From assembly GCA_038065495.1 (NCBI GenBank), contig JBBTQW010000002.1:362641-426640 (forward strand): a DNA stretch of 64,000 nt. Reading direction: 5' to 3'. The notes below the pieces were generated by a model, which worked only from the letters and a program-made list of their open reading frames with translations, was not told the origin of the DNA and did no database searches. Positions 27,030 to 59,627 of the stretch are shown here, one piece after another. Source of the stretch: Patescibacteria group bacterium. Its GTDB lineage: Bacteria; Patescibacteriota; Minisyncoccia; Phycocordibacterales; JACOZG01. Positions within the stretch are counted from its first letter, which is position 1. Each line of letters begins with the position of its first letter. The translations under genes were made by a program, and so were the position numbers.

Positions 27030-27060
27030 AAAAACCGTCCAACTGGACGGTTTTTGTTTT
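27030..27060. terminator. Bidirectional intrinsic terminator accgtcca-ac-tggacggt
   Basis: A-tract then 8-bp stem then TTTTTGTTTT. Confidence 0.7.
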
Positions 27061-27146
27061 GGTGCGCGGGAGAGGATTTGAACCTCCATGCCCTTGCGGG
27101 CGTTACCACCTCAAGGTAGTGCGTCTGCCAGTTTCGCCACCCGCGC
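27060..27146 (-). tRNA. tRNA-Leu (anticodon GAG), CCA encoded
   Basis: Reverse complement GCGCGGGUGGCGAAACUGGCAGACGCACUACCUUGAGGUGGUAACGCCCGCAAGGGCAUGGAGGUUCAAAUCCUCUCCCGCGCACCA. Long variable arm. Matches E. coli tRNA-Leu(GAG). Confidence 0.85.
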
Positions 27147-47660: not shown

Positions 47661-48863
47661 ATGAAAGATAAACAGATCGAGAAACTGATAAAACGCGAAC
47701 AAAAACGGCAGAAAAGTGTCACTAATTTGATCGCCTCGGAGAATTATGTCTCGCGTGACGTGCTAGATGCGCTGGGTTCGGAATTGAATAATAAATACGC
47801 CGAGGGTTATTCTAAGTTGAGATATTACGGTGGGAATGAAGTGGTGGATGAAGTAGAGAATCTCTGTAAAGAACGCGCTTTAAAACTTTTTAAATTAAGT
47901 GATAAGAAGTGGAATGTAAATGTGCAGGCTTTGTCTGGATCGCCGGCTAATCTCGCCGTTTATCTCGCGCTCGTGCCCTTCGACTTCGCTCAGGGCAAGC
48001 CGGGGAAAATCATGGGTATGAGCCTGGATCACGGCGGACATCTGACGCACGGGCATAGAGTGTCGGCGACTGGCAAAATCTGGCAACAAATTGCTTATGG
48101 TGTTGATCAGAAAACAGAGCAACTTAATTACGCTGAACTCATGAAAATCGCGAAGCGCGAGAAACCGGATATTATTGTGGCTGGTTATACGGCTTATCCG
48201 AGAAAGATAGATTTTAAAAAGTGGCGCGAAATTTCTGATGAAGTGGGAAGTATTCTGATGGTGGATATGTCGCACACGGCTGGGCTGGTCGCTGGCGGGG
48301 CTTATCCTTCGCCTTTCAAGTTTGCCGATGTGGTCACAACCACGACGCACAAGACTCTGCGCGGACCACGCGCGGCGCTGATTTTCTCTAAAATTGATAA
48401 GCGCGAATTGGGTAAAAAAATCGACAAAGCGGTTTTCCCCGGTTTGCAAGGCGGACCGCATGCGAATCAGATTGCTGGTGTGGCCGTGGCTCTGCAAGAA
48501 GCAATGAAGCCGGAGTTTAAGAAGTATGCCAAGCAAGTGGTGGCCAATGCGAAAATTCTCGCACAAGAGCTGAAAAAGCTTGGCTGGAGAATAGTTTCTG
48601 GTGGCACAGACTCGCATTTGATTCTCGTAGACACTTGGCTGGGTGGGGCTGGCGTGAGTGGGAAGGTGGCGAGTGATGCGCTGGAGAAAGCCGGAATTAT
48701 TGTGAACAAGAACACAATCCCAAATGACACGCGCAGTCCAATTGATCCATCGGGGATTAGACTGGGCACGGCGGCGGAGACGACGCGCGGGGCAGGAGCC
48801 AAAGAGATGAAGCAAATTGCCCAGAAAATTGCTAAGATACTGACTAAAGCAAAACATGGCTAA
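47661..48863 (+). CDS. glyA: Serine hydroxymethyltransferase
   Basis: 400 aa. SGSPANLAVYLAL...HGGHLTHGH...TTTHKTLRGPR (PLP-Lys). Contains the in-frame FDFAQGKP repeat insertion. Confidence 0.95.
   Translation: MKDKQIEKLIKREQKRQKSVTNLIASENYVSRDVLDALGSELNNKYAEGYSKLRYYGGNEVVDEVENLCKERALKLFKLSDKKWNVNVQALSGSPANLAVYLALVPFDFAQGKPGKIMGMSLDHGGHLTHGHRVSATGKIWQQIAYGVDQKTEQLNYAELMKIAKREKPDIIVAGYTAYPRKIDFKKWREISDEVGSILMVDMSHTAGLVAGGAYPSPFKFADVVTTTTHKTLRGPRAALIFSKIDKRELGKKIDKAVFPGLQGGPHANQIAGVAVALQEAMKPEFKKYAKQVVANAKILAQELKKLGWRIVSGGTDSHLILVDTWLGGAGVSGKVASDALEKAGIIVNKNTIPNDTRSPIDPSGIRLGTAAETTRGAGAKEMKQIAQKIAKILTKAKHG
47975..48003 (+). repeat. 29-nt in-frame intragenic repeat copy 1 (in glyA): gcccttcgacttcgctcagggcaagccgg
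   Basis: 27 of 29 identical to the copy at 62310-62338. Encodes PFDFAQGKP. Confidence 0.7.
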
Positions 48864-49560
48864 AAATCAGAAAACTGGCAAGTTTATTGTGATCGACGGC
48901 ATTGACGGCTCGGGCAAAGGAACGCAGACCACCTTGCTGGTGAAGAAATTAAAGAAACTGGGCGTGCCCGTGAAGACGATTGATTTTCCCCAGTATTACA
49001 AAAACTTTTTTGGTGAACTCTTGGGTGAATACTTGGCCGGGGAATATGGCGATTTTACGCAAGTGGATCCTAGAGTTGCTTCTGTTTTATACGCGGCAGA
49101 CAGATTTGAATCTAGTCAGCAGATCAAGAGCTGGCTGGACGCTGGCTACAACGTGGTCGCCGATCGTTATGTGAGCGCCAACCAGATTCATCAAGGTGGG
49201 AAAATCGCTGACTCAAAAGAGCGGAAAGAGTTTATGGCTTGGCTCGCCAAGATGGAGTATCAGATTTTCCAGATTCCCAAGCCGAGTCTGGTGATTTATC
49301 TGGACGTGCCGTTTGAGGTGAGCAAAGAATGGCTGAAGCAGAAGATTGCTAAAATAAAGAAGAAATATCTCAAAGGTCGGCAGGATGTGGCGGAAGAGAA
49401 CTTAACTTACCTCAAGAATTCCCGCCAGAGCGCGCTGATGCTGGTGGAAGAGAATAAAAATTGGCGCAAGATTGAGTGTTGCCAGGGGATGACTTGTCTG
49501 CCGGTAGAGGCGGTGCATGAGCGCGTCTTTGCCATTGCGCAAGAGCATTTAAATAAATAA
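48856..49560 (+). CDS. tmk: Thymidylate kinase
   Basis: KFIVIDGIDGSGKGTQ P-loop. DRY motif. Overlaps the glyA stop. Confidence 0.9.
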   Translation: MAKNQKTGKFIVIDGIDGSGKGTQTTLLVKKLKKLGVPVKTIDFPQYYKNFFGELLGEYLAGEYGDFTQVDPRVASVLYAADRFESSQQIKSWLDAGYNVVADRYVSANQIHQGGKIADSKERKEFMAWLAKMEYQIFQIPKPSLVIYLDVPFEVSKEWLKQKIAKIKKKYLKGRQDVAEENLTYLKNSRQSALMLVEENKNWRKIECCQGMTCLPVEAVHERVFAIAQEHLNK

Positions 49561-49584
49561 CAGAACACTAATTTATCCTAAATA

Positions 49585-51201
49585 ATGCTTAGCGAAAAGA
49601 TCAAAACTTGGCTGGGTGATGAGCGAGCGCAGGTGATGCCAACGGAAAACTTGGCGAATGGCGATTATGCCAGCAACTTGGCGCTAGTCACCAAGCAAGA
49701 TGCGAGTGTTCTGAAAGCCAGATTAGAACAGAATTTATTGCCAGAGATAGAAAAAATAGAAGTGGCTGGCGGTTTCTTGAACTTTTTTCTTAAACCAGAG
49801 TATTTTGCGCAAAATTTGCAGAATATTACTGAACAGCAAGATAAATTTGGCTGGAATAATAATCTGGAACAGAAAAAAATAATTGTTGAGTATACTGATC
49901 CCAATCCGTTCAAAGAATTCCACATCGGGCACTTGATGAGCAACGCTATCGGCGAGAGCATTTCGCGTTTAATTGAAGCAAATAATGCCGAAGTGAAGCG
50001 CGCTTGTTATCAAGGCGATGTGGGCTTGCACGTGGCGAAAGCTATTTGGGGTTACAAGAAAGGAGGAAAAGGTGGTTTTGAATTTGGCAAAGCTTATGCC
50101 CTTGGTTCTTCTGCTTATGAAAATGAGGAGAAGGCAAAAGAGGAAATCCAGAACATTAACCAAAAGATATACGATCGTTCTGATCCAGAAATAAATGAAA
50201 TTTATGATCTTGGTAGAGGAAAAAGCCTTGAGAACTTTCTTTTGATCTATGAGAAGCTTGATACAGACTTTGATTTCTTTTTCTTTGAGAGCGAAACAGG
50301 GGAGCTGGGCAAGAAAATTGTGGAAGAAAATGTGGGGGGGATTTTTGAAAAGAGCGAGAACGCTGTTGTTTTCCATGCCGAAAAGTTTGACGCTAAATTG
50401 CATACGCGCGTCTACATTACAGCGCAAGGTTTGCCGACTTATGAGGCCAAAGAGCTGGGTTTGCATCTCAAAAAGTCGCAAGTTTTCCCTTTCGACCGCT
50501 CGCTGATTATCACCGCCAACGAGCAGGATGGCGTCTTTCGTGTTGGCTTGGCCGCGCTCCGGCAACTTGATCCGGAATTGGCCGATAAAACTCAACATCT
50601 CTCGCACGGCATGTTGCGCTTGCCGACGGGCAAAATGAGTTCCAGAACTGGCGATGTGATTACGGCCGAAAGTTTGATTGCTGAAGTGAAAGAGAAAGTT
50701 TTAGAGAAAATGCCTGCCCGCGCAGGTGGGGAAGAGAAAGATGAGCAGGTTGCCGAGCAAGTCGCCGTGGGGGCGATCAAGTACGCGATTCTCAAGCAGG
50801 CGCCTGGACGGGATGTGATCTTCGACTTTGCCAAATCACTTTCTTTCGAAGGTGACTCCGGTCCGTATCTTCAATACACTTACGCGCGGGCCAAGTCTGT
50901 TCTAGCCAAAGCAAATTCTGGGTCAGAGAAAGTGAACTTAGAAAATTTAGAGCTTAGTGACACAGTTAGACTGCTAGCCCGTTTCCCAGAGATTGTCGCT
51001 CGTGCGAGTGCGGCTTATGCGCCGCAACTCTTGCTTAATTATCTCATTAATTTGGCGAGCAGTTTCAACAGCTTCTACGCGCAGAACAAAATTATTGGCG
51101 GTCCGGAAGAAAAATCTCGCCTCGCGCTCACCCAAGCCGTAGCACAGGTTATGAAAAATGGCCTGTGGTTGCTGGGTATCCAAGCGCCGGAGAAGATGTG
51201 A
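49585..51201 (+). CDS. argS: Arginyl-tRNA synthetase
   Basis: 538 aa. HIGH motif (HIGHLMSNAIGESISRL). DALR anticodon-binding C-terminus. Confidence 0.9.
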   Translation: MLSEKIKTWLGDERAQVMPTENLANGDYASNLALVTKQDASVLKARLEQNLLPEIEKIEVAGGFLNFFLKPEYFAQNLQNITEQQDKFGWNNNLEQKKIIVEYTDPNPFKEFHIGHLMSNAIGESISRLIEANNAEVKRACYQGDVGLHVAKAIWGYKKGGKGGFEFGKAYALGSSAYENEEKAKEEIQNINQKIYDRSDPEINEIYDLGRGKSLENFLLIYEKLDTDFDFFFFESETGELGKKIVEENVGGIFEKSENAVVFHAEKFDAKLHTRVYITAQGLPTYEAKELGLHLKKSQVFPFDRSLIITANEQDGVFRVGLAALRQLDPELADKTQHLSHGMLRLPTGKMSSRTGDVITAESLIAEVKEKVLEKMPARAGGEEKDEQVAEQVAVGAIKYAILKQAPGRDVIFDFAKSLSFEGDSGPYLQYTYARAKSVLAKANSGSEKVNLENLELSDTVRLLARFPEIVARASAAYAPQLLLNYLINLASSFNSFYAQNKIIGGPEEKSRLALTQAVAQVMKNGLWLLGIQAPEKM

Positions 51202-51207
51202 GCTGAC

Positions 51208-51236
51208 TTGACAGGAGTTATACATTATGCTAGCTT
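51208..51236 (+). promoter_or_regulatory. Promoter TTGACA-N17-TGcTAGCTT
   Basis: cTTGACAggagttatacattaTGCTAGCTTaagg. Confidence 0.45.
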
Positions 51237-51297
51237 AAGGGCGGCGTTTTGTTGAATTTTGATCCTCGTAAATTTTGAAACAGGAAAGGAATTGTGT

Positions 51298-51915
51298 ATG
51301 TCAGTTGAAAAAGTTGTGCCTCCACTGGAGGAATTGGGAACTATTTGCCAGATTCTGTCTGGGATGGGGGTGGAAGATCAAAGACCGTTAGCGACCACCC
51401 TTCGCAAGATCTGTCAGCAAGCAGAAACCTCTCTCCTCTCGTTTGCTCCGCAGGGTTTGGAGTCGTTGATCCATGTTTTTGGGGTTATCCTGGAAGCTGA
51501 TATCCATTTGCCGAATGTCTGGTGTGCCCGGTTACGACTTACACCAGAGAGTTGGCCTAGCTTGGCGATCGTCTCTAAGTTTCAGCTGGTAGATCCGAGA
51601 GAAGCGGTCTGGAAAGCGTTTCCTCGTGACCAGCATCCTATTGTCAACGCCTATCAGGCAAAGGAGTGTATCGTCAACATGTTGGCGAGTCGTGGATTGA
51701 GGTTGGCCACGGAGACCGAAATTACTATGGCACAGACTTTACTGGCAACCAACATTTTTGCCGGGAAAAAGCTTTGCCAGTTGGGTTCTCTCGAGCCAGA
51801 AGCTCAATTCCATGCCCAGATGGATTGGCCTCTTTGTTCAGCTGGGTCGGAGAGGTTCCTGTGGGTTCCTGCAATGCCGGCGGATGTTGAGTCTTGCAAC
51901 GGGCCGCTCAAGTAG
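51298..51915 (+). CDS. Hypothetical protein (about 205 aa), GC-rich
   Basis: RBS AAAGGAAUUG. Followed by terminator gcccc-aagt-ctcga...tcgag-aggc-ggggc plus T7 (51937-51979). Confidence 0.4.
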   Translation: MSVEKVVPPLEELGTICQILSGMGVEDQRPLATTLRKICQQAETSLLSFAPQGLESLIHVFGVILEADIHLPNVWCARLRLTPESWPSLAIVSKFQLVDPREAVWKAFPRDQHPIVNAYQAKECIVNMLASRGLRLATETEITMAQTLLATNIFAGKKLCQLGSLEPEAQFHAQMDWPLCSAGSERFLWVPAMPADVESCNGPLK

Positions 51916-52018
51916 TTCGTTCTCCGCTGGTCCGACAGCCCCAAGTCTCGATTAATTTCGAGAGGCGGGGCTTTTTTTGTGCCAAAAAACGCGAAAAATG
52001 CTAGGATGGTTAAACAAA

Positions 52019-55000
52019 ATGTCTGATCCCGAGAATAAAAAGTCTAAAAGTAAAGTCGCTGAGCGGGAGGAGAAAACGCTCGCTTTTTGGCGTGAGCAGA
52101 AGATTTTTGAGAAATCTGTAGAAAAAACAGCTCCAAGGGGGGATTTTGTCTTTTATGACGGTCCACCGTTTGCGACTGGTCGACCCCACTTCGGACACAT
52201 TATGACGGGAACGATTAAAGATGTGACTCTGAGATACAAAACGATGCGCGGTTATCGCGTGCCCCGGCGCTGGGGCTGGGATTGTCACGGTTTGCCAGTG
52301 GAAAACTTGGTGGAGAAAGAATTAAATCTCGCGACCAAGAAAGAAATAGAGAAATTTGGCATCGATAAATTTAATGAAAAAGCGCGGGCGAGTGTCTTGC
52401 GTTACGAAGAAGTGTGGAAAGAGATAATCCCGCGCACGGGACGCTGGGTGGACATGGATCATCCGTACAAGACGATGGACGCGAACTACACAGAATCTGT
52501 GTGGTGGTCGTTCAAAACTTTATTTGAGAAAAAACTGATTTATCAGGGCTTTAAGAGTATGCACTTGTGTCCGAGATGTGAGACAACGCTATCTAACTTC
52601 GAAGTGTCGCAAGGCTACAAAGATATCACGGATATTTCGGTTTACGCGAAATTTAAATTATTAGATGAAGAAAATACTTATTTATTAGCCTGGACTACAA
52701 CGCCGTGGACTCTGCCGGGCAATGTGGCGCTGGCTGTAAAAAGTGATGGAATTTATGTGAAAGCAAAATTAAAAAATAGCGAAGAAAATTATATTTTGCT
52801 GAAAAGTTTAGTGGAGAAAGTGTTAAAAACAGATTTTGAAATTCTAGAAGAATTTGCTGGTGAAAAATTAATTGGCAAAGAATATAAAACTTTGTTTGAT
52901 TATTATGCGAAAACTGGGAAAGTCTACGGTGCCGAATTTGTGAGTACAGAAGAAGGAACGGGGATTGTGCACATTGCGCCAGCTTTTGGTGAAGAAGATT
53001 ATCAGCTTTCGCTGCAAGAAAAATTGGCTTTTGTGCAACATGTGGGAACCGACGGGAGATTCAAGCCAGAAGTCACGGACTTTGCGGGAGAATTGGTAAA
53101 GCCAAAAGAAGCGCATCAAGAAACAGATATCAAGATTATCAAATATCTGGCGGGGAAAAATTTACTTTTTGCGAAAGAGAAAATCGTGCACAGTTATCCG
53201 CACTGTTGGCGTTGCGATACGCCACTCTTGAACTACGCTTCTAGTTCGTGGTTCTTGAAAGTGACTGATCCGGAACTGAAGAATAAAATAATTGCGGAGA
53301 ATCAGAAGGTGGCGTGGACGCCGGCGGAAATCAGAGATGGGCGGTTTGGGAAATGGCTGGAAGGCGCCCGCGATTGGGCGATCTCGCGCTCGCGTTACTG
53401 GGGCGCGACTCTGCCGGTCTGGGTTTGTGAGAAGTGTGAAGCGCAGAAAGTGGTGGGAAGTGTTGAAGAACTAAAAAACTTGTTGCCGAAGTCGGGCAAT
53501 AACTATTTCTTGATACGTCATGGCGAGGCGGAGAGTAATGTGCGCGGAATTGTGACTTCCGAAATGACGGGAAATGGTTTGACGGAGAAAGGTCGGGAGC
53601 AAGTTTTAGAAAAGTTAGGATTTTTTAAAGAAAAAAAGATTGAGTTAATTTTGGCTTCTGATTTATTGCGAGTGAAAGAAACGGCAGAAATTGTTGCTAA
53701 TGGTCTGGGTTTTGATTCAACAAAAGTTATTTATGACGAACGATTGCGCGAACTGAATTTCGGCGATTACAGTGGCGAAGAAATCGCGACTTATCATCAG
53801 CATTTTATTAGCGAAGATGCGCGGTTCACAGTCCGTCCGCCAAAGGGTGAGAATCTCACTGATCTCAAGAAGCGGGTGATGAATTTATTGTATGAATTGG
53901 AAAATAAATATCAGAATCAGAATATTTTGCTGATTTCTCACGGCGATCCAACTTGGTTGATGCAGGAAAAATCTGATGCCACTTATTTACAAAATGGCGA
54001 AATCAAAGAGCTAAATTTTACAGCACTGCCCCACAATTCTGACTATGAATTAGATCTTCACCGGCCGTATATTGATGAAGTAAAACTGAAGTGTGAGAAG
54101 TGTGCGGGAGGAATGACCAGAGTGCCGGAAGTCTTTGACACTTGGTACGATTCTGGCTCGGTGCCATTTGCGTCGCAAAATTTGCGTCAATTAGTGCCGG
54201 CGGATTTTATCGCCGAAGGCTTAGATCAAACTAGAGGTTGGTTCTACACTTTGCTAGTTTTATCTACTGCGCTGTTTAATAAATCGCCTTACAAACAGGT
54301 AGTGGTAAACGGTTTAATACTCGCCGAAGATGGTAAGAAGATGAGCAAGCGCTTGAATAATTATCCGGAACTAACAGACGTGCTGGACAAATATGGCGCG
54401 GATGCACTGAGATATTACTTGATGGCCAGCCCGGCGGTGCGCGCGGAGGACGTGGCTTTCTCCGAGAAAGGCTTAGATGAAGTGGTGAAGAAGATAATTT
54501 TGCGGTTGGAGAATGTGGTGGCTTTCTATGAGTTGTATCAACAAGAGAATCCAGAAAATAAAAATAATTCAGAAATAAAAAAATCAGAAAAAAATAGCGA
54601 AAATATTTTAGACCAGTGGATTCTCGCGCGCTTGGCTCAGTTGAATACAGAAGTGACTGAAAGTCTAGAAAATTACGAATTAGATCAAGCGTCCCGGCCG
54701 TTTAGTTTATTCGTTGACGATTTATCAACTTGGTACTTGCGGCGTTCTAGAAAACGCCCGGAAGCGCTGGTAGTGCTAAAAAAAGTTCTACTAGAATTAG
54801 CAAAACTGCTCGCACCATTTATGCCGTTTATCGCGGAAGAAATTTATCAGAAGTTTAGAGAAAGTTCTGACCCAAAAAGCGTGCATCTGGAAAATTGGCC
54901 TAAAACGGAAAAATCTAACACAGAATCTGATCATGTTTTAGCAGCGATGTCTTTTGCGCGTAGCTTTGTCACAATGGCGTTGATGCAACGGGCTGAGAAA

Positions 55001-55417
55001 GGTATAAAAGTGCGGCAACCTCTTTCGCTTTTGCTGATTAAGCATTCATCTGATTTAGAGCTACCTTTCTGGGATGAAATATCAGAGATTATTAAAGAAG
55101 AAGTGAACGTTAAGAAGGTCGAATTATCTGCTGAATTGACACAGGATGATCCTCCAATTGTTATTTATCTTGATCTGGAAATTACAGCGGAGTTAAAAGC
55201 CGAAGGCGAGTTTCGTGATTTAATCCGCGCGGTGCAAGATGAAAGAAAAAAACTAAAATTAGTACCCGGCCAAATGGCCGAATTAACTCTTAATCCAGAC
55301 AAACAAGCTTTGCTAGAAAAAACTGATAATAAATTAGAATTACAGAAAACTTGTTCTGTTTCTCTGATTAAATTTGACGATCAATGTCCCACCAACTCTA
55401 TCAGACTGAAGGTTTAA
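52019..55417 (+). CDS. ileS: Isoleucyl-tRNA synthetase with an embedded histidine-phosphatase (PGAM-type) domain
   Basis: HIGH (PHFGHIMTGTIKD). Editing site GTGIVHIAPAFGEEDY. KMSKS (KMSKRLNN). Split zinc knuckle CEKCEAQ...CEKCAGG flanking an insert of about 165 aa (LIRHGEAESN...LLISHGDP). Confidence 0.95.
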   Translation: MSDPENKKSKSKVAEREEKTLAFWREQKIFEKSVEKTAPRGDFVFYDGPPFATGRPHFGHIMTGTIKDVTLRYKTMRGYRVPRRWGWDCHGLPVENLVEKELNLATKKEIEKFGIDKFNEKARASVLRYEEVWKEIIPRTGRWVDMDHPYKTMDANYTESVWWSFKTLFEKKLIYQGFKSMHLCPRCETTLSNFEVSQGYKDITDISVYAKFKLLDEENTYLLAWTTTPWTLPGNVALAVKSDGIYVKAKLKNSEENYILLKSLVEKVLKTDFEILEEFAGEKLIGKEYKTLFDYYAKTGKVYGAEFVSTEEGTGIVHIAPAFGEEDYQLSLQEKLAFVQHVGTDGRFKPEVTDFAGELVKPKEAHQETDIKIIKYLAGKNLLFAKEKIVHSYPHCWRCDTPLLNYASSSWFLKVTDPELKNKIIAENQKVAWTPAEIRDGRFGKWLEGARDWAISRSRYWGATLPVWVCEKCEAQKVVGSVEELKNLLPKSGNNYFLIRHGEAESNVRGIVTSEMTGNGLTEKGREQVLEKLGFFKEKKIELILASDLLRVKETAEIVANGLGFDSTKVIYDERLRELNFGDYSGEEIATYHQHFISEDARFTVRPPKGENLTDLKKRVMNLLYELENKYQNQNILLISHGDPTWLMQEKSDATYLQNGEIKELNFTALPHNSDYELDLHRPYIDEVKLKCEKCAGGMTRVPEVFDTWYDSGSVPFASQNLRQLVPADFIAEGLDQTRGWFYTLLVLSTALFNKSPYKQVVVNGLILAEDGKKMSKRLNNYPELTDVLDKYGADALRYYLMASPAVRAEDVAFSEKGLDEVVKKIILRLENVVAFYELYQQENPENKNNSEIKKSEKNSENILDQWILARLAQLNTEVTESLENYELDQASRPFSLFVDDLSTWYLRRSRKRPEALVVLKKVLLELAKLLAPFMPFIAEEIYQKFRESSDPKSVHLENWPKTEKSNTESDHVLAAMSFARSFVTMALMQRAEKGIKVRQPLSLLLIKHSSDLELPFWDEISEIIKEEVNVKKVELSAELTQDDPPIVIYLDLEITAELKAEGEFRDLIRAVQDERKKLKLVPGQMAELTLNPDKQALLEKTDNKLELQKTCSVSLIKFDDQCPTNSIRLKV

Positions 55418-55977
55418 TTCTCGCCGCGCACGACTACGGCGAGGCGAACGGTTTTTATCAGTTGCTAACGCCGGATCTGGGCTTGATCGGCGCGAGTGCG
55501 CAAGGCGTGCGACACCTTAAGTCTAAACTGCGCCCCCAGCTTGGCAGTTTGAGTCATGCCAAGCTCACGCTGGTGCGTGGCCGCCAAGTGTGGCGGCTAG
55601 TGGGCGCGGAGGCGAGTGGCCTGCTCGCGTCAGTTTTGAGTGAAGCCAGCAAGCACCGCGCTTGGGCGCGAGTGGCCTTGTTGGCACGCCGCTTGATCCG
55701 CGGCGAGGCGGCTGATGCGAGGCTGTACGAAGATCTACTCGCTGGCCTGACAGTTTTGAACCAGATCGAATCAGCGCAAGTGGTGGACTTTGAGGCTGTC
55801 ATAGTTTTGCGTTTGCTAAACAGTTTGGGTTATGTGCAAGAGTCAGTGGCGCTAGCGCCGTGGTTGCAGGCCGATCTGTGGCCAAGTGGTGCTGGTTTGG
55901 CGCTTGCTTTGCCGGCACCAGAACGCGAACGGGTGATTAGCGTGATTAATTACGGTTTGGAACACAGTCAGCTCTAG
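55384..55977 (+). CDS. recO: DNA repair protein RecO (short form)
   Basis: N-terminus YQTEGLILAAHDYGEANGFYQLLTPDLG... resembles the RecO OB-fold N-terminus. GC-rich. Confidence 0.65.
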   Translation: MSHQLYQTEGLILAAHDYGEANGFYQLLTPDLGLIGASAQGVRHLKSKLRPQLGSLSHAKLTLVRGRQVWRLVGAEASGLLASVLSEASKHRAWARVALLARRLIRGEAADARLYEDLLAGLTVLNQIESAQVVDFEAVIVLRLLNSLGYVQESVALAPWLQADLWPSGAGLALALPAPERERVISVINYGLEHSQL

Positions 55978-55997
55978 CATGTTATAATTAGCGCAAG

Positions 55998-57938
55998 ATG
56001 ATGGAAGGCGAAATTGGAAACGAGAAAGAGAATCGCTTAGAGCGTCTCAAGCGCTTGCTGTATGCGCGCCAGCGCGGGCTCAAGCCACTGCGGCGCTCGG
56101 GTTTGGAATCGAGAACCAACGAAACTCCCACCGCTTGGCGCCACGTGGAGCCGCTCAAGCTCGCCTCGAGTTTGCCTTCAACAAAGTTGCTCAAGAGAAT
56201 TCTCTGGTGGACGGCAGGATTCTTCTTGTTGGCGGCCGCGGTGGCGCTGTTTGTTTTTTATCGTGGTAATAATTTAATTTTAGCGAGCAATGTGGTGCTA
56301 AAAGTGACTGGGCCATTAGAAATTGCCGCTGGGCAGGAATTGAGTTTGCAGGTGGAGGTGGAAAATAAGAACAACGCCGCGCTGGAGCTGGCCGACTTGA
56401 TTGTGGAATATCCGAGCGGCACGCGCCAAGCTGGCGCGGTGGACAAAGCCCTGGCGCGGGAGCGCCTGCCGCTCGGCACGATCGCGCCTGGCCAGAGTGC
56501 GCGCAAGCTGGTACGCGCCGTGCTCTTTGGCGAGAAGGGGGCTCGCGTGCCAATCAAGTTGACGGTGGAGTATCGCCTGGCGCAATCAAGTGCGATTTTT
56601 GATAAAACGGAAAATTACGAAGTGACGATTGGCTCCACACCACTCTTGCTTTCGCTCAACGTTCCGGCGGAGGTAAATAGCAATCAAGAGATTTTGTTGG
56701 AAGTGGAAGCGCAGTCCAATGCCGAGAGCGTGATCACTAATCCAGTGTTGATCATGAGCTATCCGGCTGGCTTCCGGTTTATCCAAGCCACGCCGGTGCC
56801 CACGCGCGGCCAGAATATTTGGTCGCTGCCGTCGCTCAAGCCCGGTGCTCGTGCGCGAGTCCAGATCCGCGGGACGCTGGAGGGCCAAGATGACGAACAA
56901 GAATCCTTCCGCGCTGCGGCTGGTACAATCGAAACTGACACGGCGCTGGAGTTAGCCGCCACTTATGGTTCGGCTTTCGAGACTGTCACCATCAAGCGAC
57001 CGTTTGTGGGCCTAGACGTGGCACTTAATCAGAGCACGGCCAGCGAATATATTGCCGATAGCCGCGAGCCGGTGCGCGTGGATATCGGCTGGGTCAACAA
57101 CTTGCCTGGTGAGATCACCGCTGGCGAGATCCAAGCTACGCTGGCTGGCCGGCCGCTGGATCCCACCTCAGTTTCAGCACCAAAAGGTTTCTATAATTCC
57201 ACGCAGAACACGATTCTCTGGAATCAGACCAGTGATAGCAAGCTAGCGCAGATTAGCGCTGGTGATGCGGGGCAAATTTCTTTTACTTTTGCATCACTCT
57301 CACTCGTGAGTGCGGAGGGTGCGGCTTTGCGTCAGCCGGTCTTGGATTTAGTTGTTAAATTTAAAGGCAAACACTTAGACGACAATGGTAAAGCCGTCCC
57401 AGTTTATTCCGAAGTAAAACGCAAAATCAAATTTAGCTCAGCCGTGCAACTGGCGGCAAAAACGTTGCAACGCACTGGCGCTTTCACCAATCACGGACCA
57501 TTGCCGCCAAAAGTTGGCGCCGAAACTAGTTACACTATTGTGTGGTCAGTTCTCAACTCCGCTAATTCGCTTGACGCGGCGCAAGTCAGCGCCACTCTGC
57601 CGCCATATGTGCGTTGGCTGGGCGCCACTAAGCCAAGCAGTGAGACGGTCAAGTTTAGTGGCGCAGAATCCAGTGGTGGGGAAGTGGTCTGGCAATTGGG
57701 CCAAGTGGCACCGGGCACCGGCACGGCGGGGCCGGCGCGTGAGGTTTCCTTCCAAGTCGCGCTCACGCCGAGCGTGAGCCAGGTTGGCTCGGCGCCGGTG
57801 CTGGTGAGCGAGGCCACGCTCTCGGCCTTTGATACCTTTACCAAAGCCACTCTGACTGCTAAGCTCAAGCGGGCGCTGGATACGGTGCTGGTGAACGAAG
57901 CCGGCTTCCAGCTTGGCGAAGACCGCGTGGTTAAGTAG
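55998..57938 (+). CDS. Large membrane-anchored surface protein with repeated beta-rich (DUF11/CARDB-like) domains, hypothetical
   Basis: N-terminal basic cytoplasmic tail, one TM helix WWTAGFFLLAAAVALFVF, then about 570 aa extracytoplasmic. Very GC-rich. Confidence 0.45.
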   Translation: MMEGEIGNEKENRLERLKRLLYARQRGLKPLRRSGLESRTNETPTAWRHVEPLKLASSLPSTKLLKRILWWTAGFFLLAAAVALFVFYRGNNLILASNVVLKVTGPLEIAAGQELSLQVEVENKNNAALELADLIVEYPSGTRQAGAVDKALARERLPLGTIAPGQSARKLVRAVLFGEKGARVPIKLTVEYRLAQSSAIFDKTENYEVTIGSTPLLLSLNVPAEVNSNQEILLEVEAQSNAESVITNPVLIMSYPAGFRFIQATPVPTRGQNIWSLPSLKPGARARVQIRGTLEGQDDEQESFRAAAGTIETDTALELAATYGSAFETVTIKRPFVGLDVALNQSTASEYIADSREPVRVDIGWVNNLPGEITAGEIQATLAGRPLDPTSVSAPKGFYNSTQNTILWNQTSDSKLAQISAGDAGQISFTFASLSLVSAEGAALRQPVLDLVVKFKGKHLDDNGKAVPVYSEVKRKIKFSSAVQLAAKTLQRTGAFTNHGPLPPKVGAETSYTIVWSVLNSANSLDAAQVSATLPPYVRWLGATKPSSETVKFSGAESSGGEVVWQLGQVAPGTGTAGPAREVSFQVALTPSVSQVGSAPVLVSEATLSAFDTFTKATLTAKLKRALDTVLVNEAGFQLGEDRVVK

Positions 57939-57950
57939 GTTAGAAAATTT

Positions 57951-59627
57951 ATGTCAGAAAAAGAAAAACGAGATGCAAATTTATTAGAGAAAATCGTGTC
58001 GCTGTGCAAGCGGCGTGGTTTTATTTATCCCGGTTCGGAGATTTATGGTGGCTTGGCCGGCACTTACGATTATGGTCCACTTGGTGTGGCGCTCAAGAAT
58101 AATTTAAAAAATCTCTGGTGGAAAAACTTTGTAAGCAACAGAGAAGATATGTATGGCTTGGATGCCGCGATTATTATGAATCCCAAAACTTGGGAAGCAA
58201 GCGGTCACGTGGCTGGCTTTGCTGATCCGCTTATTGGTTGTTTAACATGTTCAGAAAAATTTAGAACGGATCATCTGATTGATACTAAGGCATTCAATGA
58301 ATATCGACTCAATTTGGTCAGAGAACATTGGAGAGAAATAATGGATGTATCAGAAAAAATGGTAACAGAAACCGAGGGTAATAAAGAATATCTTTCCAAA
58401 GTTGAGTCTGCCATTAAAGTTTTGGAGCAAAATAATTTACCCAAAGATATTGAAGAAATAATGGCCAGTGCATTGAAAGCCCATATGCTCGCTTCTGTAA
58501 GTAAGGCTAGGAAAAATCTAAAAGATCTGGTTGCAGAAATAAAACCAAGCGCTGCTCCTGAAGGATTTAGTGAGACTAAAAACTTTTCTGGTCATCTTAC
58601 TCAGCTCTTTCTTGCGGAGAATAAAATTAAATGTCCCAACTGTGGTTCCATCGAATGGAATGTTCCTTCACAATTCAACATGATGTTGAAAACAAATGTT
58701 GGTGTGGTTGATGATTTATCCTCAACCACTTACTTACGTCCAGAAACTGCTCAGGGCATGTTCGTTAATTTCAAAAATATTATCGATTCGTTCCACCCTA
58801 AACTGCCATTTGGTTTGGCGCAAATTGGTAAAGCTTTTAGAAATGAAATTGCTCCCAGAGACTTTTTATTTCGCACAAGAGAGTTTGAACAAATGGAAGT
58901 GGAATATTTTGTGAAAGCAGAAGATTGGCAGAAATATTTCGAAGAATGGCGCGTTCTAATTCAGAATTATTTTGCAGAAATTGGTTTAGATTCTAGTCAC
59001 GTGCATGAGTTAGAAGTCCCAGACGGCGATCGCGCGCATTATTCGGCGCGAACTATTGATTTCGAATTTGACTTTTCGTTTGGCAAAAAAGAATTATCAG
59101 GCTTGGCTTACAGATCTGATTACGATCTCAAGCAACATCAGGAATTTAGCAAACAAGATTTAACTTATTTTGATGAAGAAAGTAAAACCAGATTCTTGCC
59201 ACACGTAATTGAGCCTTCGCTTGGCTTAGATCGCATCTTGTTAGCTGTTTTAACAGATGCTTATACCGAAGATGAACTGGGTGGGGAAGCGCGGACTTAT
59301 CTGAAGTTAAATAAAAATATTGCGCCAGTGAGATTAGCTATTTTTCCACTGCTCAAGAATAAACCGGATTTAGTTAATAAAGCGCGCGAAGTTTATCAGA
59401 ATCTTAAAGTGCAAATGCCACATCAGACTGTCGTTTTCGATGACAATGGCAATATCGGCAAGCGTTATCGCCGGCAAGATGAGATTGGCACGCCACACTG
59501 CATTACTATTGATTTTGACACGCTCGGTGAAGGCGGTGAAGATAAAAAAGATACTGTCACGGTGCGCGATCGAGATACCGGCGAGCAGGAGAGGGTGAAA
59601 ATCTCTGAATTGACAAGTAAACTCTAG
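57951..59627 (+). CDS. glyQS: Glycyl-tRNA synthetase (alpha2 dimeric class II type)
   Basis: YPGSEIYGGLAGTYDYGPLG...class II motifs. 558 aa. Confidence 0.9.
   Translation: MSEKEKRDANLLEKIVSLCKRRGFIYPGSEIYGGLAGTYDYGPLGVALKNNLKNLWWKNFVSNREDMYGLDAAIIMNPKTWEASGHVAGFADPLIGCLTCSEKFRTDHLIDTKAFNEYRLNLVREHWREIMDVSEKMVTETEGNKEYLSKVESAIKVLEQNNLPKDIEEIMASALKAHMLASVSKARKNLKDLVAEIKPSAAPEGFSETKNFSGHLTQLFLAENKIKCPNCGSIEWNVPSQFNMMLKTNVGVVDDLSSTTYLRPETAQGMFVNFKNIIDSFHPKLPFGLAQIGKAFRNEIAPRDFLFRTREFEQMEVEYFVKAEDWQKYFEEWRVLIQNYFAEIGLDSSHVHELEVPDGDRAHYSARTIDFEFDFSFGKKELSGLAYRSDYDLKQHQEFSKQDLTYFDEESKTRFLPHVIEPSLGLDRILLAVLTDAYTEDELGGEARTYLKLNKNIAPVRLAIFPLLKNKPDLVNKAREVYQNLKVQMPHQTVVFDDNGNIGKRYRRQDEIGTPHCITIDFDTLGEGGEDKKDTVTVRDRDTGEQERVKISELTSKL

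Follow-up and report, generated by a model that had tools for sequence, protein, structure and literature searches.

What does a histidine phosphatase do in the middle of an isoleucyl-tRNA synthetase (IleRS), and how did it come to be there? The question is raised by the ileS gene of a Patescibacteria group bacterium, located in a 64,000-nt stretch of DNA (GenBank assembly GCA_038065495.1, contig JBBTQW010000002.1, positions 362,641 to 426,640 of the forward strand) that was analyzed as a whole and is hereafter called the window. An earlier note, made from the sequence alone, had described a phosphatase domain that splits the zinc knuckle of IleRS in two and knew of no such architecture. As set out below, the gene probably encodes a bifunctional polypeptide, i.e., a complete type-2 IleRS together with a complete PhoE/PspA-like phosphatase, the latter a neighbor gene transplanted once and acting as an independent small-substrate phosphomonoesterase.

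An uninterrupted ileS reading frame with an inserted domain

The ileS open reading frame (ORF) runs without a break to position 55417 on the forward strand from any of three possible starts (TTG at 51977, the longest; ATG at 51998; ATG at 52019) and contains the motifs that the earlier note had quoted (...VWVCEKCEAQKVVGSVEELKNLLPKSGNNYF LIRHGEAESN ... LLISHGDPTWL ...), which bears out its claim of one continuous frame at 52019-55417. The NCBI record of this protein, MEK7650863.1, starts at ATG 51998 and is identical to sequence cluster P0034. Residue numbers are counted here from the ATG at 52019. The features of the gene, with the basis for each, are the following.

52019..55417 (+), ileS, type-2 isoleucyl-tRNA synthetase, 1132 amino acids (aa) from ATG 52019 (ORF, TIGR00392, Foldseek)
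52187..52198 (+), HIGH signature of the synthetic site, His57-Phe-Gly-His60 (sequence)
52691..52717 (+), editing-domain motif WTTTPWTLP of connective peptide 1 (CP1), residues 225-233 (sequence)
53426..53437 (+), first half of the connective peptide 3 (CP3) zinc knuckle, Cys470-Glu-Lys-Cys473 (sequence)
53486..54052 (+), inserted His_Phos_1 module, residues 490-678 (comparison with empty-site IleRS; Pfam core 497-648, at 53507-53962)
53516..53524 (+), Arg500-His501-Gly502, RHG motif with the predicted nucleophilic His (alignment)
53669..53671 (+), Arg551, second phosphate-binding Arg, in the motif S-x-x-x-R-x-x-x-T-A (alignment)
53750..53752 (+), Glu578, expected proton donor (alignment)
53939..53941 (+), His641, second catalytic His, in S-H-G (alignment)
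54017..54052 (+), lineage-specific linker F667-x-x-L-P671-H672-N673-x-x-Y-E677-L, which joins the phosphatase to the native CP3 sequence DLHRPYID (alignments)
54092..54103 (+), second half of the CP3 zinc knuckle, Cys692-Glu-Lys-Cys695 (sequence)
54338..54352 (+), KMSKS signature, Lys774-Met-Ser-Lys-Arg778 (sequence)

Against the NCBIfam ileS equivalog TIGR00392 the whole protein scores 858.6 bits (cutoff, 621.4), the match falling into two stretches with the insert between them. Among 112 homologues, H57 and G59 of the HIGH motif, the editing motif from W225 to L232, and the KMSKS lysines K774 and K777 are invariant, while H60 is kept in at least 90%. A full-length AlphaFold2 model based on the alignment of the 112 homologues has a mean predicted local distance difference test score (pLDDT) of 90.7 and a predicted template modeling score (pTM) of 0.83, with blocks of the insert at 86 to 97. 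In Foldseek searches with the host body, the best match was the type-2 IleRS 8C8V (Priestia megaterium IleRS2, E = 1e-84), together with yeast 8WND and Thermus thermophilus 1ILE. Sequence identity is 30 to 34% to the type-2 structures versus 21 to 22% to those of type 1 (8C9E, 1QU2), and by its best structural matches the protein belongs to type 2 (IleRS2, eukaryote-like). It scores well below the cutoffs of the models for the mupirocin-resistance synthetases MupA and MupB (NF000257 and NF000258; 740 and 729 bits, cutoff 1900) and of that for ileS_w_GNAT (NF040702; 325.6 bits versus 1999), and no GNAT Pfam match was found in it. No second ileS was found in the 64-kb window. The intact motifs and the lack of a second copy in the window indicate that this ileS encodes a working IleRS and is not a paralogue of uncertain function.

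A branch-1 histidine phosphatase of the PhoE/PspA-like kind

Pfam family PF00300 (His_Phos_1) matches residues 497 to 648 of the whole protein (E = 8.7e-32, 110.8 bits) and, when the insert is excised, matches it with E = 3.6e-33 and 115.3 bits (gathering threshold, 21.7), i.e., far beyond chance. Modeled alone with AlphaFold, the insert reaches a pLDDT of 95.3 and a pTM of 0.91, and in this as in the full-length model it is confidently folded as a His_Phos_1 domain. Foldseek aligned the model of the insert with the phosphoserine phosphatase PspA (4IJ5/4IJ6), the mycobacterial glucosyl-3-phosphoglycerate phosphatase, the riboflavin-pathway phosphatase 9MMH, PhoE (1H2E), and alpha-ribazole phosphatase (probability 1.00, E = 4e-13 to 3e-11, template modeling [TM] score of ~0.7), and by sequence the nearest solved protein is PhoE/YhfR (E = 4e-12). 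The complete set of residues that defines branch 1 of the superfamily is present, namely, the RHG motif, two arginines, the second histidine, and the acidic donor (R500, H501, R551, E578, and H641). Pfam and NCBIfam matches, model, and Foldseek thus all support the assignment of the RHG and SHG motifs to a branch-1 histidine phosphatase that had been made from the letters alone.

The accompanying suggestion of a PGAM or cofactor-dependent-mutase type did not hold. The best NCBIfam match of the excised domain is indeed a model of cofactor-dependent phosphoglycerate mutase (dPGM), dPGM_arch (NF038349), at 90 bits; the curated cutoff for that model is 225, and scores lay at 85 to 90. The scores on the other mutase models also lie far below the cutoffs (pgm_1, 22 bits versus 81.7; gpmA-type models, 20 to 49 versus 305 to 366, with PRK14115 at 20 versus 305; GpmB, 56 to 61 versus 261). 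The dPGM family has a conserved H-G-N after the second catalytic histidine and an E-R-H-Y-G substrate motif; the window has S-H-G-D and E-L-N-F-G at these places, and the position after H641 varies among 112 sequences (G in 42, E in 39, D in 15, and N in 11; Q also occurs). The SixA model gives only 30 bits (cutoff, 74.5). The domain is acidic, with a mean net charge of -6 and of -9 in the window. One PHROG of unknown function matches the insert (E = 3e-22), a generic His_Phos_1 similarity, and PADLOC returned no defense-system match for it.

The domain occupies a plastic loop of CP3

In comparison with Patescibacteria IleRS in which the site is empty, the insert of ~189 to 190 aa takes the place of a loop of ~6 residues between the two CxxC halves. 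The empty site reads ...VWVCEKCEELKVVGSIEELGEEHKDMDLHKPYIDKVTFQCKCGGEMKR... in the IleRS of lineage L004 and ...IWVCDKCNKRKVIGSIKELEKLSGQKITDLHKHFVDKITFNCECGGTMKR... in that of L008, and the occupied site of the window reads ...VWVCEKCEAQKVVGSVEELKNLL[PKSGNNYF...phosphatase...ELNFTALPHNSDYEL]...; the family hidden Markov model (HMM) of the insert spans residues 491 to 680. A scan of genome contigs with patterns from the window's peptide, which are very specific to the window, found five loci, all of them IleRS without the insert. The segment to which the earlier note had assigned the domain, 53507-53992, translates to the peptide it quoted (FLIRHGEAESNVRG...LLISHGDPTWLMQEKSDATYLQ) and covers the Pfam core. 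Its estimate of ~165 aa was too short, the last beta-strand and the conserved linker having been missed. Similarly, the position between the zinc-knuckle halves stands, whereas the connective peptide concerned is CP3 and not CP2 (PMC7191050). The zinc motif of IleRS has been assigned to the CP3 subdomain, which joins CP2 to the second half of the Rossmann fold, and the topology of CP3 differs between the Candida albicans, T. thermophilus, and Staphylococcus aureus enzymes, of which only that of T. thermophilus binds zinc there (PMC7191050). The host site is, in other words, peripheral and evolutionarily plastic.

The knuckle that frames the insert appears to be dispensable. Among 112 insert-bearing IleRS the cysteines of the first half are kept in 77, and those of the second half in 77 and 73, the four being lost jointly in the remaining third or so. 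The window also has an exact 13-nt direct repeat, TGTGAGAAGTGTG, at 53426-53438 and 54092-54104, which codes for CEKC in both knuckle halves. In most relatives the second half is C-x-C, one residue shorter, so that the second half in the window resembles a copy of the first. The repeat could reflect a small conversion or duplication, or coincidence.

The same insertion recurs across Patescibacteria

To what extent could the architecture be a product of assembly or annotation? In a search for full-length homologues, the best 120 clusters at 90% identity (53 to 100% identical to the window's protein, 1038 to 1352 aa) all combine PF00300 with PF00133, at the same site. Insert-bearing IleRS come from NCBI, JGI, ENA, and Logan assemblies, on contigs of up to 981 kb, and the protein of the window itself occurs in identical form on three contigs, the longest of 443 kb. 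The source names include Nomurabacteria, Zambryskibacteria, Yonathbacteria, Vogelbacteria, Azambacteria, Paceibacterota, and Minisyncoccota; this breadth is read from source names and sequence clusters, membership of the Parcubacteria group having been confirmed in the taxonomy for Yonathbacteria only. An exhaustive HMMER scan, run over 1.84 billion cluster representatives at 50% identity, yielded 125 matches at E <= 1e-30. Among the best 150 HMMER matches most were long proteins that align with the insert and both flanks in one stretch, at around residues 450 to 540, and in 112 of the 50%-identity representatives a near-complete domain is embedded in the host. A word-index search with the insert and short flanks, which depends on shared words and hence underestimates frequency, returned only three fragmentary insert-bearing IleRS (P0001-P0003). 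These trace to low-coverage or error-prone assemblies; in P0001 and P0003, argS and ileS are both broken by frameshifts and the gene order is unchanged.

Nor are there marks of a mobile element. No Hint or intein family match was obtained, and the junctions (...SGNNYF/LIRHG... and ...NSDYEL/DLHRP...) lack the Cys/Ser and His-Asn-Cys/Ser/Thr residues of intein boundaries. No inverted repeats surround the insert, the sole direct repeat at its flanks is the 13-mer that codes for CEKC, and the G+C fraction of the insert (0.40 to 0.44) lies within the range of the remaining ileS. Recurrence in independent assemblies rules out misassembly or a chimera, and the His_Phos_1 fold, together with the missing Hint match and inverted repeats, rules out an intein or mobile element; we consider the overall chance of an artifact, gene-calling error included, negligible. 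The claim that this is a true domain insertion, neither an assembly or fusion artifact nor an intein, is thereby confirmed. The proposed comparison with IleRS of other members of the candidate phyla radiation (CPR) gives a consistent picture: the insert is common to the best 120 homologues and the site is empty in other Patescibacteria. The phosphatase-in-IleRS architecture is a lineage trait of Parcubacteria-type Patescibacteria, spread over more than 100 related lineages.

Catalytic residues are retained in a fast-changing domain

Two sets of insert-bearing IleRS, a close set of 112 homologues and an independent, divergent set of 112 representatives at 50% identity, which together span 32 to 100% identity, were compared at the catalytic positions. 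In the close set, Arg500, His501, Arg551, and His641 are present in 112/112 sequences, Glu578 and Gly502 each in 111, and Asn507 in 107. In the divergent set, Arg500, His501, and His641 are again found in all 112 and Arg551 in 111, and residue 578 is Glu in 101 and Asp in 9. These residues are held in a part of the protein that otherwise changes quickly: mean pairwise identity is 0.42 for the phosphatase, as against 0.64 to 0.70 in the editing domain and the two Rossmann halves; the anticodon domain lies at 0.55 and the C-terminal domain at 0.40. Retention of precisely the catalytic set in a fast-changing domain argues for catalytic constraint, and favors an active enzyme over a dead passenger.

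Stand-alone relatives lie next to ileS

Outside IleRS, the insert is most closely related to stand-alone proteins of ~190 aa, 36 to 48% identical, that align with it from end to end, including the K-N-x-Y-F lead-in to the RHG motif. Their genes sit 0 to 1.6 kb upstream of an uninserted ileS in Patescibacteria, in the order argS-phosphatase-ileS-recO. The neighborhoods sampled, from five lineages, are as follows.

L008: argS, phosphatase (8 nt past argS and 12 nt before ileS), ileS of 946 aa without the insert, recO
L018: argS, ORF of 179 aa, phosphatase, ileS of 961 aa, ORF of 158 aa, recO
L012: argS, two ORFs of 300 aa, phosphatase, start of ileS
L023 ("Candidatus Pacebacteria"): phosphatase, three small genes, ileS of 980 aa, recO
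L010: argS, phosphatase; the contig ends ~700 nt further on, with no ileS in that stretch

In tblastn searches with the IleRS of the window, residues 9 to 488 and 679 to 1083 match the uninserted ileS with six codons between them, and residues 494 to 649 match the upstream gene in L008, L012, L018, and L023. Conversely, in L021, the insert-bearing ileS starts 40 nt past argS, with no stand-alone copy in between, and the family HMM detected no second His_Phos_1 in the six-frame ORFs of the window or in the flanks of the L020 and L021 loci. L004 represents a third state, in which the phosphatase is absent. The wider stand-alone family, collected by a word-indexed search, comprises at least 441 clusters at 90% identity (E <= 1e-15), frequently labeled "broad specificity phosphatase PhoE" by JGI.

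In a neighbor-joining tree, rough as it is for so short a domain, the inserted domains form one clade, sister to the clade of ileS-adjacent stand-alone proteins. Some short, apparently stand-alone sequences fall within the inserted clade; they have IleRS flanks and are therefore fragments and not true stand-alone proteins. From tree and gene order we infer that the CP3 loop received, in a single event, a copy of a phosphatase gene already cotranscribed with ileS and that the upstream copy was then lost. The insertion would have taken place in an ancestor of the Parcubacteria-type lineages, with loss of the stand-alone copy following it; both the single origin and the direction of transfer, from gene to domain, are suggested by the tree.

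Linker, loop, and cap changed after insertion

Three regions of the domain differ in all or part of the inserted clade. The linker at its C-terminal end is conserved beyond most of the domain, with counts among the 112 close homologues of 101 for F, 108 for P, 102 for H, 98 for N, and 97 for E; in the divergent set the proline is found in 95 of 96 ungapped representatives and Asn/Asp persist. It has a pLDDT of 92 to 93 in the full-length model and is absent from both the stand-alone phosphatases and the uninserted IleRS in the alignments compared here. The linker would dock the domain and set its orientation, the domain being probably held in place and not floppy.

The second difference concerns a family-typical loop on the active-site side, SSWPEK..PLTEKG, that is kept in the stand-alone clade (W in 96%, P in 98%, and K in 91%), as are R577 (98%) and N585 (96%). 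In the inserted clade the loop positions, R577, and N585 all fall to ~30%. These figures come from alignments made for this comparison, which were not curated. The change may mean that substrate specificity has shifted, or that an interface needed in trans became dispensable. The third is a shortened cap region: ~27 residues (family-HMM positions ~95 to 121) that lie between Glu578 and Glu611 have been deleted, with the catalytic residues kept, in a subclade of IleRS of 1038 to 1080 aa (P0046, P0048, P0050-P0057, P0061-P0065, P0069, P0073, P0074, P0079, and P0125).

Further rearrangements were found in individual proteins. P0190 has four tandem His_Phos_1 copies after the N-terminal part of IleRS, and in P0283 (L022:1932-6191), seen on one 8-kb contig, a second His_Phos_1 copy separates the catalytic domain from the one that binds the anticodon. 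P0181 carries an IS200-like Y1 transposase domain within the editing region in addition to a GNAT domain, P0111 a GNAT domain at 285-415 in addition to the phosphatase, and P0097 is the 1352-aa form. Patescibacteria IleRS would seem to be a hot spot for extra domains, most such forms being singletons.

What the phosphatase may do

If the domain acts as an independent phosphomonoesterase, the reading that we favor, a phosphomonoester would be hydrolyzed via a phospho-His501 intermediate; Arg500, Arg551, and His641 would bind the phosphate, and Glu578 would supply the proton for the leaving group. The phospho-histidine mechanism is the established chemistry of the histidine phosphatase superfamily. 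The activity would be chemically independent of aminoacylation, with the IleRS body continuing to charge tRNA-Ile, and the fusion would fix the 1:1 coexpression and colocalization of an activity that was already operon linked to ileS. The substrate is most likely to be a small soluble ester, because the close solved relatives are all small-molecule phosphatases, the domain is acidic, and its ancestor would have been a free protein of ~190 aa. The conserved gene cluster is rich in genes for nucleotide salvage and thymidylate synthesis, with serine hydroxymethyltransferase and a thymidylate/deoxynucleoside kinase in the window and ThyX, dUTPase, nucleoside deoxyribosyltransferase, NUDIX, and MazG in the cluster of relatives. 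A nucleotide or related ester is therefore a reasonable but unproven guess.

Some observations weigh against this reading. The single origin depends on a rough neighbor-joining tree of a short domain, and the word-indexed set of stand-alone proteins may inflate the conservation of the loop motif; stand-alone proteins from searches that were not seeded with the motif show the same WPE motif. The close and ancient adjacency to ileS, the linker, the loop change, and the extra copies suggest a link to IleRS that is functional and not merely expressional, a link that the idea of an independent small-molecule phosphatase may underestimate. It is conceivable, if on balance unlikely, that the phosphatase is a new accessory activity of the aminoacyl-tRNA synthetase (aaRS), docked on CP3, that heals 2'/3'-phosphorylated tRNA-Ile ends or gates isoleucylation by sensing or hydrolyzing a phospho-metabolite. 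Were this true, the adjacency of stand-alone gene and ileS would represent the noncovalent form of the same partnership in other CPR bacteria.

The earlier note had guessed at hydrolysis of a phosphorylated tRNA or nucleotide intermediate, or at a moonlighting or regulatory role. Taken by itself, a role in tRNA-Ile handling, in which the domain would remove the 2'- or 3'-phosphate from damaged tRNA 3' ends (or another RNA or nucleotide) and hand the healed end to the synthetase, strikes us as quite unlikely. Such a phosphate could arise from an opened 2',3'-cyclic phosphate, and the role would fit the ileS adjacency in uninserted lineages, the maintenance of the fusion over a large radiation, the conserved docking linker, and the loss of the family-typical substrate loop after insertion; the cap deletion of the subclade would open the active site to larger substrates. 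In Lachnospiraceae, moreover, distant stand-alone homologues (P0016/P0019, loci L014-L016) lie in a cluster of NUDIX, YbaK-like tRNA_edit, 2H phosphoesterase (2_5_RNA_ligase2), CN_hydrolase, and His_Phos_1 genes, adjoining the tRNA_edit and 2H phosphoesterase genes, a context that hints at RNA or tRNA end processing. However, this is one species-level locus at 32 to 34% identity, the acidic domain has no accompanying RNA-binding module, its nearest solved relatives all act on small molecules, and no branch-1 histidine phosphatase is known to us to use RNA ends as substrate. Decidedly improbable, in turn, is a regulatory role, whether as a phospho-metabolite sensor that allosterically gates aminoacylation through its ligand or phospho-His state or as a SixA/PGAM5-like protein phosphatase that reverses phosphorylation of IleRS or a partner. 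Insertion into a connective peptide of the catalytic domain through a rigid, conserved linker is the topology expected for allostery, the specificity positions are relaxed or changed in the inserted clade, and the cap-deleted subclade is presumably comparable to minimal protein-directed members of the superfamily. Yet CP3 is peripheral and variable (PMC7191050) and its framing knuckle dispensable, no kinase partner was seen in the neighborhoods examined, the SixA score is low, and the stand-alone ancestor points to a self-sufficient enzyme.

That the domain is simply the glycolytic dPGM of the cell, hitchhiking in IleRS, is very improbable: the best NCBIfam match, the name of the superfamily, and some automated annotations point to phosphoglycerate mutase, but the scores remain far under the curated cutoffs, neither dPGM motif is conserved, the domain has ~190 aa and no dPGM C-terminal tail, and the nearest solved relatives are phosphatases. 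A degenerate, noncatalytic passenger in a permissive loop is barely credible. Unrelated domains do occur inside Patescibacteria IleRS (GNAT and IS200-transposase-like in P0111 and P0181; the NCBIfam family ileS_w_GNAT), CP3 is variable, and the insert changes faster than the core; against this, the five catalytic residues are retained in 110 to 112 of the 112 sequences in both sets, the fold is predicted with confidence, and in reduced genomes an essential gene would rarely keep a nonfunctional stretch of 570 nt across a whole radiation.

Neighborhood of ileS and other features of the window

The genes that flank ileS in the window are its conserved neighbors.

49585..51201 (+), argS (ArgRS), conserved upstream neighbor (PF00750, PF05746, PF03485)
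55384..55977 (+), recO, conserved downstream neighbor, whose start overlaps the end of ileS by 34 nt, 55384-55417 (RecO_N)

L020 and L021 share the gene order argS-ileS-recO-DUF11/CLIPPER protein-GlyRS with the window. The gap between argS and ileS (51202-52018, 800 bp) corresponds to the slot of the stand-alone phosphatase in relatives. It holds an ORF from TTG 51259 or ATG 51289 to 51915 (~208 to 218 aa), with a ribosome-binding-like site, AGGAAAGGA; this ORF has no Pfam, PADLOC, or PHROG match and does not resemble its positional counterpart in L020, a 72%-identical relative. No phosphatase relic was detected in the gap by the family HMM, whose sole match among the six-frame ORFs of the window is the insert, and the gap ORF is ruled out as such a relic. 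A terminator-like hairpin with a U-run at ~51939-51978 lies directly upstream of the ileS start (fold z = -2.4), and an Rfam search of 51100-52100 for a T-box or other RNA leader upstream of ileS gave no match at E <= 1.

G+C content is uneven at 48000-58000, argS and ileS falling locally to 0.33 to 0.45 and recO and the DUF11 gene reaching 0.55 to 0.63. At 57951-59627 lies a GlyRS-like class II synthetase of 558 aa with ~250 residues ahead of its class II core match (254-434); its L021 orthologue has a faint GlyRS_ins_1 match, and it may be another insertion-rich synthetase. ARAGORN reported a tRNA-like gene of 87 nt at 27060-27146 (-), with a two-base "anticodon" (tg) and no identity assigned.

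Significance and comparison with known systems

Searches of 8 million full texts gave no description of a histidine phosphatase in or next to IleRS, in agreement with the claim that no such architecture is known, and none was met on targeted reading in a 2026 survey of domain insertions or in a 2017 paper on CPR synthetases. One member (KKT81487.1, OHA82701.1, UniRef A0A1G2SE31) has been public since ~2015, the time of the first CPR genome releases, and the sequences have automatic Pfam annotation; the architecture is unstudied rather than unseen. It evidently confuses automated annotation: NCBI names insert-bearing IleRS no more than "class I tRNA ligase family protein", with one of them called "GNAT family N-acetyltransferase", and some stand-alone phosphatases (P0362 and P0426) carry the JGI label "isoleucyl-tRNA synthetase". 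Metabolic reconstructions that count His_Phos_1 as phosphoglycerate mutase may likewise be misled.

An intact phosphomonoesterase is kept in the essential IleRS of a whole ultrasmall, genome-reduced radiation, and sister lineages keep the gene near ileS. In barely culturable organisms this amounts to a "Rosetta-stone" signal that isoleucylation and a dephosphorylation step are functionally linked, and it is directly testable with recombinant protein. It also offers a clean, datable case of a rare event, in which a neighbor gene moved into the middle of the next gene and was not fused to it end to end. The likeliest function of the phosphatase could still be mundane, and no long-standing question depends on the architecture.

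As for known systems, the host resembles T. thermophilus IleRS (1ILE) and P. megaterium IleRS2 (8C8V) in family and fold (Foldseek E = 1e-84 to 4e-68; TM score normalized to the target, 0.80 to 0.88), with the HIGH, KMSKS, and editing motifs in place and a CxxC...CxxC knuckle in CP3 that matches that of T. thermophilus IleRS (PMC7191050). It differs from every solved IleRS in having a catalytic domain of ~190 aa in place of the few residues that separate "EEL" from "DLHRPYID" in the knuckle loop. The insert, for its part, is like PhoE (YhfR) of Geobacillus stearothermophilus (1EBB/1H2E) in fold, catalytic residues, size (~200 aa), and short cap, and can also be likened to PspA (4IJ5/4IJ6), Rv2419c (4PZ9), CobC, and the riboflavin HFP 9MMH. 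Identity to the PhoE-type enzymes is only 21 to 25%, however, and the insert is embedded, its clade lacking the G/S-W-x-D/E loop. Closer are the stand-alone Patescibacteria phosphatases of the same operon (e.g., P0004, P0007, P0013, and P0428), which form the sister clade; they differ in being separate genes that keep the SSWPEK loop, R577, and N585 and lack the PLPHN..YEL linker.

Inserted modules are a familiar feature of class Ia synthetases, classic examples being the editing domain in CP1 and the leucine-specific domain of LeuRS. To our knowledge, the modules inserted in aaRS have so far always served aminoacylation or fidelity; the editing and leucine-specific domains act on aminoacylation itself, whereas a phosphomonoesterase has no evident role there. 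The IleRS with an N-acetyltransferase domain (NF040702) follows the same principle of an autonomous domain in a class Ia aaRS; GNAT-bearing IleRS occurs within this phylum, and some proteins (P0111) combine GNAT domain and phosphatase. The Rv2228c-type RNase H/CobC-like phosphatase (NF005567) is another branch-1 phosphatase fused to a nucleic-acid enzyme and aligns with the insert at 69 to 73 bits, far below the cutoff of 326, but it is an end-to-end fusion with a different partner enzyme. Inserted modules in class Ia aaRS are, in sum, already known; what is new is a constrained phosphomonoesterase within IleRS.

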